Below, piece after piece: positions 4,022 to 56,636 of a stretch of 64,000 nt of DNA. Both the position numbers and the translations under genes were made by a program. The DNA lies in assembly GCA_965248055.1 (NCBI GenBank), contig CBDFIJ010000004.1:2784001-2848000 (forward strand). Reading direction: 5' to 3'. Position 1 is the stretch's first letter; the number at the start of each line of letters is the position of its first letter. The notes under the pieces are model-generated. The model ran no database searches, had not been told where the DNA came from, and saw only the letters and a list, made by a program, of their open reading frames with translations. Source of the stretch: Candidatus Multivoradales bacterium. GTDB lineage: Bacteria; Acidobacteriota; Thermoanaerobaculia; Multivoradales; JAHEKO01.

Positions 4022-4135
4022 AAAAACATCATATGTGATTCAACTCACTACTGCTCCAAAGTAGGACAGGGCCATGCCCTGCGCGCGCCTTCTGTGCAGA
4101 GAGCGGGCTGAGCCTAGCCAATAGCCTCCCGCCTC

Positions 4136-5219
4136 TGCATAAGTTCAGAAACAAATGGCACTCGTTCAATGAGGGATGTCGATGAGCATGAGGTTGATCA
4201 GAGGGCGTTTCCAAGGCCTGGGACATCTTCGTCATCTAGGGGTATCTTGGGTCATGACCCAAGATAGCGCTGAGAAACGTATCCGAGCATTGAGATTCTG
4301 GCAGGAGCATGGGATCGATGCAGCGATCGATGCATTTTCGGTGAGCCGGAGGACTCTGTACCGCTGGAAGTCTCGTCTTGGTAGGTGCAAAGGAGAGCTA
4401 AGCTCTCTAAACCCTCAATCAACAGCTCCGAAGAAAAGAAGACGGCGCAAGTGGCCCTCTGAGGTAGTAGCCGAGATCGGTCGATTGCGGGTCAAAGAGC
4501 CCAATCTTGGCAAGGACAAGATCTATCCGCTGTTGAAACCCTGGTGTGAAGTAAGGGGAATTACCTGCCCCTCGGTGAGCACCATCGGCCGCATCATTGG
4601 CGATGCTCCCGACAAGATGCGCTTGGTGCCTCAAAGGATTGATCGCCTGGGTCGAGTGAAAGCAAAACGAAAGCGTAAGCCTCGCAAACCTAAAGGAACC
4701 AAGGCATGCTCGCCTGGCCAGTGGGTGGCAGTAGATACCATCGAGCGATTCTGTGATGGCCAACGCCGGTACTTGATCACTCTGACCGATGCCGCCAGCA
4801 GCATGAGTCTGGCAATAGCCACCAACTCCCACACCTCGAGCACGGCAGCGCGCTTTCTGGACCTGAGCCTTGATGTCTTGCCATTTGCTGTTACTACCGT
4901 GCTCTCAGACAACGGTAGTGAGTTTCAAGGAGCCTTCGACAAGAAAGCTGCTGAGGCTGGAATCAAACGCTGGTACACCTACCCCAGGTGCCCGAAGATG
5001 AACGCCCAAGCCGAGAGATTCAATCGAACCATCCAAGAGAAATTCGTTGACTACAACGAAGACTTGCTCTTCACTGACCTCCAAGCTTTCAACCAAAAAC
5101 TCTTCGACTGGATGCTCTGGTTTAACGCCGAAAGGCCCCACTGGAGCCACCGACAAAGACCACCGCTACAATACGTAGCTGAACATACCGATCAGTGCCA
5201 AATGTCATGGACGCATACA
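4136..5219 (+). mobile_element. IS481-like insertion sequence (1084 bp) with 5-bp target duplication GCCTC
   Basis: IRL 4136-4162 (TGCATAAGTTCAGAAACAAATGGCACT) matches the reverse complement of IRR 5194-5219 (TGTATGCGTCCATGACATTTGGCACT) at 18/27. GCCTC flanks both ends (4131-4135 and 5220-5224). Confidence 0.85.
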
Positions 5220-5228
5220 GCCTCTTGA
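4176..5228 (+). CDS. IS481-like DDE transposase (HTH plus integrase core)
   Basis: HTH (VSRRTLYRWK) and DDE residues (VAVDT, VLSDNGSEF, NAQAERFNRT). The start may be ATG 4182. The stop codon lies outside the element. Confidence 0.92.
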   Translation: MSMSMRLIRGRFQGLGHLRHLGVSWVMTQDSAEKRIRALRFWQEHGIDAAIDAFSVSRRTLYRWKSRLGRCKGELSSLNPQSTAPKKRRRRKWPSEVVAEIGRLRVKEPNLGKDKIYPLLKPWCEVRGITCPSVSTIGRIIGDAPDKMRLVPQRIDRLGRVKAKRKRKPRKPKGTKACSPGQWVAVDTIERFCDGQRRYLITLTDAASSMSLAIATNSHTSSTAARFLDLSLDVLPFAVTTVLSDNGSEFQGAFDKKAAEAGIKRWYTYPRCPKMNAQAERFNRTIQEKFVDYNEDLLFTDLQAFNQKLFDWMLWFNAERPHWSHRQRPPLQYVAEHTDQCQMSWTHTAS

Positions 5229-5253
5229 CTTGATCCTTTAGGGTTCGTAGAAT
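5225..5253 (+). promoter_or_regulatory. Sigma70-type promoter of groES-groEL
   Basis: TTGACT (5225-5230), a 17-bp spacer and TAGAAT (5248-5253), directly before CIRCE. Confidence 0.85.
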
Positions 5254-5279
5254 TAGCACTCGTCAAGAGAGAGTGCTAG
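5253..5279 (+). promoter_or_regulatory. CIRCE element (HrcA operator)
   Basis: TTAGCACTC-N9-GAGTGCTAG is one mismatch from the consensus TTAGCACTC-N9-GAGTGCTAA and lies upstream of groES. Confidence 0.95.
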
Positions 5280-5351
5280 CAGATATGTTGGCTAACTTGA
5301 CAAGCTCTTAATAATCAACGTTTTGGATAAACCAAAAGGAGATATAGAGAA

Positions 5352-5642
5352 GTGAAAATTCGTCCGCTTCATGACCGCGTAGTGGTCAAGCGCCTTGAGT
5401 ATGATGAAGAAGAAGTTCGAGGTGGCATTATTATCCCCGACACTGCCAAAGAGAAGCCTCAGCAGGCAGAAGTGGTAGCCGTCGGCCCCGGAAAGCTGAA
5501 GGAAGATGACAGCCGCTCGACCATGGATGTCAAGGTCGGTGACCGCGTCTTAGTCGGCAAGTACTCCGGTAGCGAGATCAAGTTTGACGGCGACGAACTC
5601 GTCATCATGCGCGAGGACGAGATCCTTGCGGTACTCAACTAA
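5352..5642 (+). CDS. groES: Co-chaperonin GroES
   Basis: [28 protein letters not shown], and an AAGGAG RBS upstream. Confidence 0.98.
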
Positions 5643-5692
5643 GCAACACTACAGAAACTAGTCGCTAGGAATACTAAGGAGAAGAATCAGCC

Positions 5693-54170: not shown

Positions 54171-54239
54171 TGACAAGTAAAAAGGGGGCCAAGATCCTTC
54201 GGGTCTATCGAATAACCCAAAACGAAGGGAGGCCCCCAG

Positions 54240-54459
54240 ATGCAAATCGTCGCACTCGATCCAAGTTTCTACAAGTACTACCGTGAAGACATCGTTGTCT
54301 TAGGCTCTCAGGCTCGTGATCGGCTGCGCTTGGTTGCGAGCTTCGAGCAACTACGCGACAAGGGGATCTCGGGTGAAGAAGCAGCTCAGATCTTGGGCAA
54401 GAGTCGAGCTACCCTTTACCGCTGGCGCAAACGCCTTGAACGTGGCCCCCGACATCTAG
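54240..54459 (+). pseudogene. IS481-like transposase, 5' fragment (HTH)
   Basis: AAQILGKSRATLYRWRKRL. It joins the 3' fragment in frame once the inner IS is removed. Confidence 0.9.
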
Positions 54460-55775
54460 GAGCTTGCTGAAAAACCCCACCACCGGACCATAACGATTCT
54501 ATAATTGGGAATAGGAGGTTTTGATGCGTGGATCGGATCAAGGTCAGGGATCAATGTTCAGCTACGTTGACCTGGAACGGCGAATTCCTCGGTCTCATCC
54601 GTTGCGGCGGATCCGAAGTTTGATGGACGAAGCTCTTGGAGAGCTATCGGAGCGTTTTGAGACGATCTACGCTTCGAGTGGTCGCCCTTCGATTCCCCCC
54701 GAGCGTCTGCTCCGCGCATTGCTGCTTCAAGTGCTCTTCAGCGTGCGTAGTGAACGCCAGCTGATGGAGCAACTTGAGTACAACCTTCTATTTCGCTGGT
54801 TTGTCGGTCTTGGTATCGACGAGCGGGTGTGGGACGCGACGACGTTTTGCAAGAACCGAGAGCGCTTGCTCGAAGGTTCGATCGCGGAAGAACTGTTTGC
54901 AGCGGTGCTGTCTCAAGCCGAGGACCGTGATCTGCTGTCACCGGATCACTTCAGCGTTGATGGCACACTGATCGAGGCTTGGGCTTCGCACAAGAGCTTT
55001 CGGCCAAAGGACGAAGAGGTTAAACCTCTGGACGGTGGAGCGGACTTCCGAGGCCAGAAGCGGTTGAACCAAACGCACGCTTCGACGACCGACCCCGAGT
55101 CTCGGCTGTCGCGAAAAGGCCGTGGTAAGGAAGCAAAACTAAGCTACCGGGGCAACATTCTGGTCGAGAACCGGCACGGGATGATTGTCAACACCGAGGT
55201 CAACATCGTCACCGGCAACGGTGAGACAACAGCGGCTCTGGCCATGCTGGAGCAGCGGGCTAGCAATCATCGCGTCACGGTGGGTGCTGACAAGGGCTAT
55301 GACAACCGAGCGTTTGTAGAGAATGCGAGGAAGCTGAATGCGACACCTCACGTAGCGCAAAGCACCAAGAATCGCCGCAGCCGGATTGACCGACGCACCA
55401 CTCGCCACGCAGGTTACGAGATCAGCTTGGCGAGACGACCGAGAGTCGAGGCACCCTTCGGCTGGCTCAAACAGTACGGACTGCAACGCAGACCGATGTT
55501 TCGAGGCGTAGCCCGCATCGGTTGGTCTTTCACTTTTGCGGCAACAGCGTTTAACTTGCTCCGAATAGCCAATCTGAGCGCGCCAACATGACGAATTTCT
55601 ATCCCAAGTGCTCCTCAAATCGCTCGAATCACCCGTTAGGGCGAATCGAAGAGCTGACCCAAGGGGTCACCAACACCCTCAACTCGCCAGCCACCTTGAT
55701 TCGTCTCCACATTCAAAGTACTTCGACCGTTATGACCACTGAAATTAGCTCCGTTGCCCTTTTTTCAGCAGGCTG
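54460..55775 (+). mobile_element. IS5-family insertion sequence (1316 bp) with CTAG target duplication
   Basis: IRL GAGCTTGCTGAAAAA and IRR TTTTTCAGCAGGCTG match at 13/15. CTAG lies at 54456-54459 and 55776-55779. Confidence 0.92.
54524..55591 (+). CDS. IS5-family DDE transposase
   Basis: HPLR, GRPSIPPE.LLRA, RSERQL, FSVDGTLI, TTDP, GADKGYD and R..VE..FGW.K, with an AGGAGG RBS. Confidence 0.93.
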   Translation: MRGSDQGQGSMFSYVDLERRIPRSHPLRRIRSLMDEALGELSERFETIYASSGRPSIPPERLLRALLLQVLFSVRSERQLMEQLEYNLLFRWFVGLGIDERVWDATTFCKNRERLLEGSIAEELFAAVLSQAEDRDLLSPDHFSVDGTLIEAWASHKSFRPKDEEVKPLDGGADFRGQKRLNQTHASTTDPESRLSRKGRGKEAKLSYRGNILVENRHGMIVNTEVNIVTGNGETTAALAMLEQRASNHRVTVGADKGYDNRAFVENARKLNATPHVAQSTKNRRSRIDRRTTRHAGYEISLARRPRVEAPFGWLKQYGLQRRPMFRGVARIGWSFTFAATAFNLLRIANLSAPT

Positions 55776-55779
55776 CTAG

Positions 55780-56597
55780 AACCGATATCAAGCCGACCCA
55801 AGCGGGTGCGTAAGGCTGACTGGTCACCTGAATTGGTACAGAGAGTCGAAAGTCTCCGTCGAGACTTTCCTGCCTGGGGCAAGGAAACCCTAGCGCCGCT
55901 GATCCAGGGCGAGGGCTTTGAGGTATCAGAAGCCACTGTCGGGCGTATCTTGCGCAAATTGATGGATCGAGGGGTAATCCACCGGGTACGCTACCGGCGC
56001 CAGAAGTACAAAAACTCCCGGCGTATGCGCCGGCTCCACGCTCAGCGACTGCCGAAATGGTGTCCCCGACCAACGCGCCCTGGCGAGCGACTGCAGATCG
56101 ACACGCTGCATCTGGTCCCTGCTCCAGGCAAGTGGCTCAAACACTTTTCAGCCTCCTGTCCGGTCAGCCGGTGGACAGTGGGAGAGATCTATCAACGTGC
56201 CACTTCTCGCTGTGCAGCACGCTTTCTAGACAAAGTCATTGCCGAGTGTCCGTTTGACATCACCTCGATCCAAGTGGACGGTGGTAGTGAATTTATGGAT
56301 GAATTTGAGAAAGCCTGCCGAGATAGAGGCATCACCCTCTATGTGCTGCCGCCAAAGAGTCCGAAGCTCAACGGCACCGTCGAACGAATGCAGGAAACCT
56401 GGAGAGGAGAGTTTTATGAAATGTATGAGCTACCCGATACTGTCTCGGCTTTGAGACCTTACATCCAGAGATTCCAGGACCTCTACAACACCTACAGGCC
56501 GCACAAGAGCTTGAAAAGAAAACCCCCGGCAAGGTACCTTAGAAAGCTCGACCCAGGGGTCGTGCTCCCGCCGACTGTCTCAAAGGTACTGATCTAG
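55780..56597 (+). pseudogene. IS481-like transposase, 3' fragment (integrase core)
   Basis: WGKE.L, VSEATVGRIL, LQIDT, IQVDGGSEF, NGTVER and YN..RPH. Confidence 0.9.
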
Positions 56598-56606
56598 GAC
56601 ATCAGC

Positions 56607-56636
56607 TTGACAGCGGGCGCCGTGAGTCATTAGGTT
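56607..56636 (+). promoter_or_regulatory. Putative sigma70-type promoter of the riboswitch-metH leader
   Basis: TTGACA (56607-56612), an 18-bp spacer and TAGGTT (56631-56636), a few bases before the aptamer 5' end. Confidence 0.7.

Follow-up and report, generated by a model that had tools for sequence, protein, structure and literature searches.

Few bacterial transposons are known to choose a functional genomic feature over a sequence word, and promoter targeting has so far rested on one transposase superfamily. The closest described systems are the TnGBS, ISLre2 and ISKra4 elements, which encode Mutator-like transposases and insert in a fixed orientation 15-17 bp from the -35 box of sigmaA promoters; a survey of this group gives a distance of 13-17 bp, uses promoters at >20% of the sites as criterion and proposes that dissymmetry of the inverted repeats (IRs) sets the orientation (PMC3942029). 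Members of the ISAba32 subgroup (IS1202) insert in an oriented manner 5-6 bp from Xer sites, a distance equal to the length of their target duplication, and their authors argue that the sequence by itself is insufficient to specify the target (10.1101/2022.12.17.520857). Full-text literature, with most subscription journals, ISfinder, TnPedia and supplements outside its scope, yielded promoter-targeted transposition only for TnGBS/ISLre2/ISKra4 and no IS481-like element of this kind; a 2023 paper cites only TnGBS papers for "motifs upstream of promoters" (PMC10433421). Here, we describe two IS481-like insertion sequences (ISs), e1 and e2, in a 64,000-nt stretch ("the window") of Candidatus Multivoradales bacterium (contig CBDFIJ010000004.1, positions 2,784,001 to 2,848,000). 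Both end exactly 5 bp upstream of a -35 box, e1 at the predicted promoter of groES and e2 at that of the metH leader. Judging from sequence, we propose with a probability of about 0.9 that such elements insert in a targeted manner at promoters.

Insertion sites in the host genome and in relatives

The window is part of a 3.35-Mb contig. Using BLAST, we collected 13 right IR (IRR) ends of e1 and 13 of e2 from this genome; full copies of e1 are 89-100% identical to each other, intact copies of e2 98.8-99.6%. Counted from the first base beyond the IRR (+1), TTG is present at +6..+8 behind 10/13 e1 ends and 11/13 e2 ends, and all other offsets within +1..+40 have it at most twice. Given a genomic TTG frequency of 0.020, 21 of 26 corresponds to a binomial P of ~1e-31, which rules out chance. 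A -10-like TAnnnT follows at a spacer of 16-18 nt in 8/13 (e1) and 7/13 (e2) sites, with 0-1 in controls shifted by 8-20 nt. In the pooled matrix, (C/G)TTGACa occupies +5..+11, with T, A...T further on at +29, +30 and +34. The initial annotation had expected +1..+5 to be variable. This is true for +1..+4; at +5, all but two of the 26 sites (24) have C (17) or G (7).

The flanks lie outside a crude open reading frame (ORF) mask, which covers 88.8% of the genome, in 21/26 cases (P = 4e-16). There are 8390 TTGAC words in the genome, of which 1.5% have a TAnnnT 16-18 nt further on; for intergenic words, the fraction is 61/947 = 6.4%. At the IS sites with TTGAC a -10 box is found in 7/12, against the 6.4% of intergenic words (P = 2.7e-6), so that neutral survival at intergenic TTGAC sites cannot account for the -10 boxes. 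Two other IS families of the same genome served as controls: TTG at +6 was seen in 0/7 ends of an IS5-like element and in 0/14 right ends of e4. The latter is an rve-type IS of ~1597 bp, located at G000:C4:1763637-1765233 and in 13 other places (at least 14 right ends), with a 367-aa ORF scoring 83 bits on the IS481 model and no promoter motif at its ends.

The position of the motif is preserved in distant relatives. Scanning one genome per species, we obtained 80 e1-type loci (27-52% identity to e1) with an e1/e2 alignment; a metagenome scan with an e2 alignment provided 80 e2-type loci, mostly of 41-51% identity plus two partial ones at 73% and 78%. The e1-type hosts include Zetaproteobacteria, Sulfurimonas, Sulfurovum, Arcobacter, many Patescibacteria (CPR), sponge-associated Gammaproteobacteria, Nitrospirales and others; the overall spread comprises Campylobacterota, Patescibacteria, Gammaproteobacteria, Zetaproteobacteria, Nitrospirales and metagenomes. 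The flank played no part in placing the element ends. Terminal IRs together with a perfect 5-bp duplication defined a first set (32 e1-type, 9 e2-type); the remaining loci were placed with a position weight matrix (PWM) built from these validated ends, using their last 26-30 internal bases. A low matrix score removed 7 e1-type and 6 e2-type loci, a short flank 4 and 6, leaving 69 e1-type and 68 e2-type sites (137), all with distinct flanks. The counts were as follows:

e1-type relatives: TTG at +6 in 48/69; other offsets at most 5; TAnnnT at spacer 16-18 in 58/68; shifted controls 4-13
e2-type relatives: TTG at +6 in 43/68; other offsets at most 5; TAnnnT in 30/59; shifted controls 0-3
e1-type, ends placed by IRs and duplication: TTG in 26/32; other offsets at most 3; TAnnnT in 26/32; shifted controls 0-4
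e2-type, ends placed by IRs and duplication: TTG in 8/9; other offsets at most 2; TAnnnT in 8/9; shifted controls 0-1

The pattern is stable over identity bins and over a locus G+C of 0.29-0.72, and C is again the commonest base at +5 (32/68 and 29/60). Thus, the expectation that aligned homologues would have TTGAC at +6..+10 and a -10 box one spacer further on, here 16-18 nt, is borne out in the window's own genome, in a congener (G001) and in 137 sites of distant relatives, with TTG strongly enriched at +6 only. In mirrored left flanks, TTG at +6 occurs in 0/62 and a -10 box in 2/62, from which we derive a strict orientation; that e1 and e2 point the same way, with the transposase gene reading toward the promoter, had been noticed before and is correct for both.

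A rival reading is random insertion followed by selection, which would spare only the copies just upstream of promoters; intergenic insertion upstream of a core promoter should be among the least harmful events, and most flanks in the host genome are intergenic. We nevertheless consider it very improbable: the phase is defined to one base (TTG 10, 11, 48 and 43 times at +6 versus <=5 elsewhere in +1..+40), the mirrored flanks lack the motif, and the two control families were subject to the same genome and the same selection. Phase, orientation and controls together rule out selection alone.

Promoters of tRNA genes are recurrent neighbours. Genes for tRNA (Arg, Phe, Tyr) start at +55..+64 at 3/26 own sites (G000:C4:2349388, 2982289 and 21839), and tRNA genes start at +43..+82 in 14/114 flanks of relatives (L010, L015, L029, L032, L051, L053, L085, L094, L100, L101, L107, L124, L140 and L146). 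Judged by these counts without a baseline, strong promoters seem to be preferred.

It was also to be decided whether the motif belongs to the target or to the element. Behind e1 or e2 copies that are 98-99% identical, the downstream 5-mer, the hexamer, the spacer and the -10 box all differ; the hexamers include TTGACA, TTGATC, TTGGCA, TTGTTA, TTGCTG, TTGTGA and others. A perfect 5-bp duplication is present in 6/9 e1 pairs and 7/11 e2 pairs. Two e2 copies with unequal flanks (C4:644998-643747 and C4:3000371-2999120) both have CAATC on the right. In G001, which belongs to the same genus, three of three e2-like copies (80% DNA identity) are bounded by a perfect 5-bp duplication, behind which TTGCTT, TTGACA or TTGACT and then a -10 box are found; the single e1-like element of this genome sits in a CTAGAC repeat without TTG. 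Furthermore, the metF-metH spacer of G001 contains TTGACA ... TAGTTT and the riboswitch without any IS, i.e. the metH promoter exists there as an empty site, as the initial annotation had hoped to find in a related genome. Since near-identical copies differ in both the hexamer and the 5 bp, and an empty site exists, we conclude that hexamer and 5 bp are target sequence and not part of the element. Outward -35 boxes are common at IS ends, as is generally known and as has also been stated for copy-out-paste-in ISs (10.1101/2022.12.17.520857), and the TTGAC...-10 array might accordingly be an outward promoter of the element, with the 5-bp repeat arising by chance. We give this next to no credence, because the repeat equals the left flank in 13/20 pairs; the variability of hexamer, spacer and -10 box at 98-99% identity and the empty metH site rule out an element-borne motif.

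Several points weigh against targeted insertion at promoters or limit its reach. Five of the 26 own ends are without TTG, i.e. the rule is strong and not absolute. Two of these are right ends of e1 that adjoin the left IR (IRL) of an e2 copy, where there is no promoter. The other three are a 379-bp e1 fragment in an IS-rich stretch, an e2 end abutting e4 and a rearranged e2 copy; at C4:68531, the e2 end is joined without a gap to the left end of e4, and this accounts for one exception. Among the relatives, 21/69 and 25/68 are without TTG at +6, and the -10 signal is weak in those e2 relatives that are richest in G+C (8/26 and 0/3 in two identity bins). Many of the relatives' sites come from a few multi-copy genomes and represent independent insertions, not independent lineages, and PWM-placed ends may be off by a base or two in divergent loci. 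Finally, the identity of the sites as promoters is based on consensus and gene context.

The two e1 ends next to e2 (G000:C4:3172900 and 3000377) lie 5 bp before the e2 left end (AGAAC|TGACC and CGAAC|TGACC). Apart from the chromosome (57% G+C), the assembly contains the small contigs C1-C3 (14.8, 16.7 and 28.4 kb; 39-43% G+C), which may be plasmids, phage or foreign DNA.

The two junctions in the window

Both junctions had been described with their target site duplication (TSD), -35 box, spacer, -10 box and downstream regulator, and all coordinates agree with the sequence. The features around e1 are:

4131-4135, + strand: left TSD of e1, GCCTC, identical to 5220-5224
4136-5219, + strand: e1, IS481-like insertion sequence of 1084 bp, IRL at ~4136-4162 and IRR at ~5194-5219
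4176-5228, + strand: e1 transposase ORF, 350 aa, with HTH_23/HTH_32, rve and rve_3 domains and the residues D187, D245 and E280
5220-5224, + strand: right TSD of e1, GCCTC
5225-5253, + strand: predicted groES promoter, -35 TTGACT (5225-5230), 17-nt spacer, -10 TAGAAT (5248-5253)
5253-5279, + strand: CIRCE-like inverted repeat TTAGCACTC-N9-GAGTGCTAG ahead of groES
5352-5642, + strand: groES (Cpn10 by Pfam)
5693-7336, + strand: groEL (Cpn60 by Pfam)

The groES promoter is a prediction from consensus and context, and the repeat at 5253-5279 is a candidate CIRCE element. The terminal IRs of e1 are imperfect (TGC.../...ACA). The e1 ORF traverses the IRR without a stop codon of its own; its TGA (5226-5228) lies outside the element, within the TTGAC of the target's -35 box. 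The TGA of a target TTGAC is the stop in 26/73 e1-type relatives as well, and in the other e1-type relatives the ORF extends 13-46 nt into the flank. According to our proposal, the transposase gene of the e1 branch would have given up its own stop and would borrow the TGA of TTGACA.

None of the Logan contigs from the sequencing runs joins across e1, so no empty groES site was found in those runs. Contigs of runs X1 and X3, which probably stem from the source sample, end at IS termini. In the unrelated run X5, the match of one contig to the window starts only at 5181, so that it comprises the last 39 nt of e1 and then the groES promoter, and a second X5 contig has the end of an e1-like copy, five bases and then TTGACA; both are leads. 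In G001, the groES promoter is preceded by an e1-like IRR remnant and 5 bp (ACCAC), followed by TTGACG. These remnants in G001 and X5 could reflect either repeated insertion at a strong promoter or one old insertion.

The features around e2, which begins just downstream of the metF end, are:

54025-54029, + strand: left TSD of e2, TCAGC
54030-56601, + strand: e2, IS481-like, split by an IS5-family insertion and ~1253 bp long without it
54460-55775, + strand: IS5-family element of 1316 bp in the e2 transposase gene, with CTAG flanks at 54456-54459 and 55776-55779
54521-55591: transposase ORF of the IS5-family element, DUF772 and DDE_Tnp_1
55806-56597, + strand: C-terminal portion of the e2 transposase ORF with the rve core; the TAG stop codon (56595-56597) is inside the IRR
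56602-56606, + strand: right TSD of e2, TCAGC
56607-56636, + strand: predicted metH leader promoter, -35 TTGACA (56607-56612), 18-nt spacer, -10 TAGGTT (56631-56636)
56638-56763, + strand: SAM-I/IV riboswitch (Rfam RF01725, 46 bits, gathering score 41.1)
56823-60365, + strand: metH (domains by Pfam)

The intact e2 transposase, deduced from another copy (L001), has 345 aa. A stop within the IRR, 11 nt from the end, is present in 55/74 e2-type relatives that pass the end-matrix score. The insertion inside e2 was absent from the initial annotation; its transposase scores 259.7 bits on NF033581 (IS5_4; cut-off 140) and hence belongs to the IS5 family. Six full and several partial further copies of this element exist in the genome, all with CTAG-like flanks and none beside a promoter-like motif.

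Family assignment and comparison with known systems

The transposases of e1 and e2 share only 29-32% identity, and the description of them as clearly divergent was right. Both are single uninterrupted ORFs, as in their relatives (345-351 aa), with a helix-turn-helix (HTH) region at the N terminus and an rve core and without programmed frameshift; Pfam finds rve, rve_3, HTH_23 and HTH_32, and D187, D245 and E280 are invariant in the transposase alignment. The shared IR design had also been outlined roughly correctly: judged by eye and without formal alignment, the IRL of e1 and e2 is about one base longer than the IRR and there are two conserved blocks. The IRR reads TGT (...ACA) throughout, the IRL TGC, TGA or TGT, and the duplication is 5 bp. 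An IRR of the design ...GTCTCA/GTCCAATATGT..TG.AC...ACA is common to e1-type and e2-type elements. Terminal IRs starting with 5'-TGT are attributed to the IS481 family, in common with IS3, in 10.1101/2022.12.17.520857.

The best NCBIfam model for e1, e2 and five relatives is NF033577 (IS481), matched over model positions 1-283 of 284, with IS3 as the second-best family. The scores are 175.6 bits for e1, 186.6 for e2, 179.3 for the e1-like protein of G001 and 146.3-173.0 for four distant relatives; the curated cut-off of 224 bits is reached by none of these proteins, nor by the 49 genome matches. The label "IS481-like" is therefore appropriate as to the nearest family and does not extend to formal membership. 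No ISNCY/IS1202 model appears among the NCBIfam matches. In Pfam searches with E up to 5 (for e2, among the best 25 of 31 families), neither transposase gave a match to a Mutator family or to a Sigma70_r4-like domain. None of 3192 relatives of the e2 transposase bears an IS name. From their sequences, e1 and e2 are best called a divergent IS481-like branch; that they belong, although divergent from each other, to one large IS481-like (rve/DDE) branch of wide distribution and that promoter targeting explains their sites is, taken jointly, highly probable.

With TnGBS, ISLre2 and ISKra4 (p-MULT 3 and 4), e1 and e2 share oriented insertion upstream of sigmaA/sigma70-type promoters and DDE chemistry. 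The transposases differ, being Mutator-like there and having an rve/integrase core here. So does the distance, which is 15-17 bp from the -35 box in that group, whereas in e1 and e2 it is 5 bp, equal to the duplication length, and the cut abuts the hexamer. The two also differ in stringency, as a criterion of >20% promoters in that group compares with TTG at +6 in 63-81% of the e1/e2 sites, depending on the set. Promoter targeting has thus apparently arisen convergently in a second transposase superfamily, where it is tighter and more widespread than in the TnGBS group.

Members of the ISAba32 subgroup resemble e1 and e2 in being oriented, rve-related single-ORF ISs that abut a protein-binding site, from which they are separated by the length of their duplication. 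They differ in their target, which is XerC/D with the left IS end facing the site, in contrast to promoters for e1 and e2. The marks of the IS1202 type are Q at E+7 and an extra conserved D pair; at E+7, e1 has Q287 and e2 has R.

IS481 proper (IS481 and IS1002 of Bordetella) has in common with e1 and e2 a single-ORF DDE transposase of ~350 aa with HTH and rve, a size of ~1-1.25 kb, TG...CA ends and a short duplication; e1, e2 and their relatives differ in scoring 146-187 bits, below the cut-off. IS481 itself inserts at NCTAGN and generates a 6-bp duplication.

What is recognised at the promoter

According to our proposal, a 5-bp staggered cut would place the IRR exactly 5 bp upstream of the -35 hexamer, with the transposase gene reading outward. 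The duplicated bases would be located at about -40..-36 relative to the transcription start, and the -35 box, the -10 box and the downstream operators would be left intact. The data show the position, the orientation, the 5-bp duplication, the promoter character of the sites and the phylogenetic breadth. Beyond this, the transpososome would recognise the promoter as a unit, most likely with RNA polymerase holoenzyme bound and sigma region 4 on the -35 box.

Several observations bear on this. TTG remains at +6 with spacers of 16, 17 or 18 nt, which puts the anchor on the -35 side. Sites without TTG still have TAnnnT at the same distance in 16/20 e1-type (controls 1-4) and 10/22 e2-type cases (controls 0-3); as they retain a -10 box at the right distance, the target appears to be the promoter as a unit. 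In addition, an extended -10 element, TGn before the -10 box, is present at 29/88 sites, compared to a TG background of 6-7%.

The other possibility is that the transposase itself reads nnnn(C/G)TTGAC(A) beside its staggered cut, the -10 boxes being incidental in that tolerated TTGACA sites are mostly promoters. The N-terminal HTH domains could well read DNA, and C is the commonest base at +5. Moreover, no signal is stronger or sharper than TTG at +6..+8, and its phase is unaffected by the spacer, as direct reading of the -35 box would also produce; this counts against a role of the holoenzyme. We nonetheless regard direct reading as unlikely, if worth serious attention. It is at odds with the difference in -10 boxes between intergenic TTGAC words (6.4%) and IS sites (7/12) and with the TTG-less sites that keep their -10 box, often with TGn. 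The base frequencies of the -35 box resemble those of a promoter compilation and not those of a tighter protein-binding site, and the IRs are devoid of a TTGAC-like word. It is also unlikely that a 350-aa transposase that cuts at about -41 and -36 would recognise a hexamer at a distance of 28 bp. Most simply, the target would be a promoter that holoenzyme occupies or shapes, the nearest landmark being sigma region 4 on the -35 box. Of the two mechanisms that the initial annotation had offered, docking on RNA polymerase or sigma fits better than the reading of TTGAC, as the TTG-less sites keep their -10 box. For insertion guided by holoenzyme, as opposed to reading of TTGAC on naked DNA, we would put the chances at about even.

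A structure prediction of the e2 transposase with sigma residues 485-565 scored 0.00 in both runs; lacking controls, it weighs neither way. Among named proteins, those nearest to this genome's primary sigma factor bear the label Acidobacteriota/Thermoanaerobaculia, with 82-85% identity in the last 126 residues, and the window's organism probably falls into that group.

Extended to the whole group, the idea of holoenzyme-guided insertion becomes more tentative, falling slightly short of even odds: a cross-phylum clade of rve-type ISs may use promoter-bound holoenzyme as a landing pad, such that occupancy and not sequence chooses the site. The transpososome would dock beside sigma region 4 and cut at about -41 and -36, in the region that class II activators occupy. 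If promoter occupancy chooses the site, it would account for tRNA, groES and extended -10 targets. A eukaryotic parallel exists in yeast Ty3 (and Ty1), whose rve-fold integrases direct insertion to RNA polymerase III start sites; Ty3 tethers to TFIIIB/Pol III. The likeness would be that an rve-fold integrase is directed to initiation complexes and that the targets include tRNA genes. The difference is that these are eukaryotic retrotransposons with protein tethering, whereas for e1 and e2 there is no evidence of a tether. Holoenzyme-guided insertion would then correspond, in bacteria, to the way in which Ty3 targets Pol III initiation complexes, and would have evolved independently of TnGBS.

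With a second, unrelated and much more widespread family that follows a tighter rule, how a transposase finds a promoter, be it via sigma, RNA polymerase or DNA shape, would become a general and testable question. In uncultured phyla that are without promoter maps, such as Patescibacteria and Acidobacteriota, the elements would point to active sigma70-type promoters with the precision of a single base. For annotation, it should be kept in mind that such IS ends are to be expected beside promoters and that the borrowed stop of the e1 ORF is no error. The transposase of 345-350 aa could become an orientation-specific tool for landing at promoters. For the hosts, the insertions displace upstream activator or UP-element DNA and spare the core promoter, and they have probably altered regulation repeatedly at strong promoters, for instance those of tRNA genes and groES.

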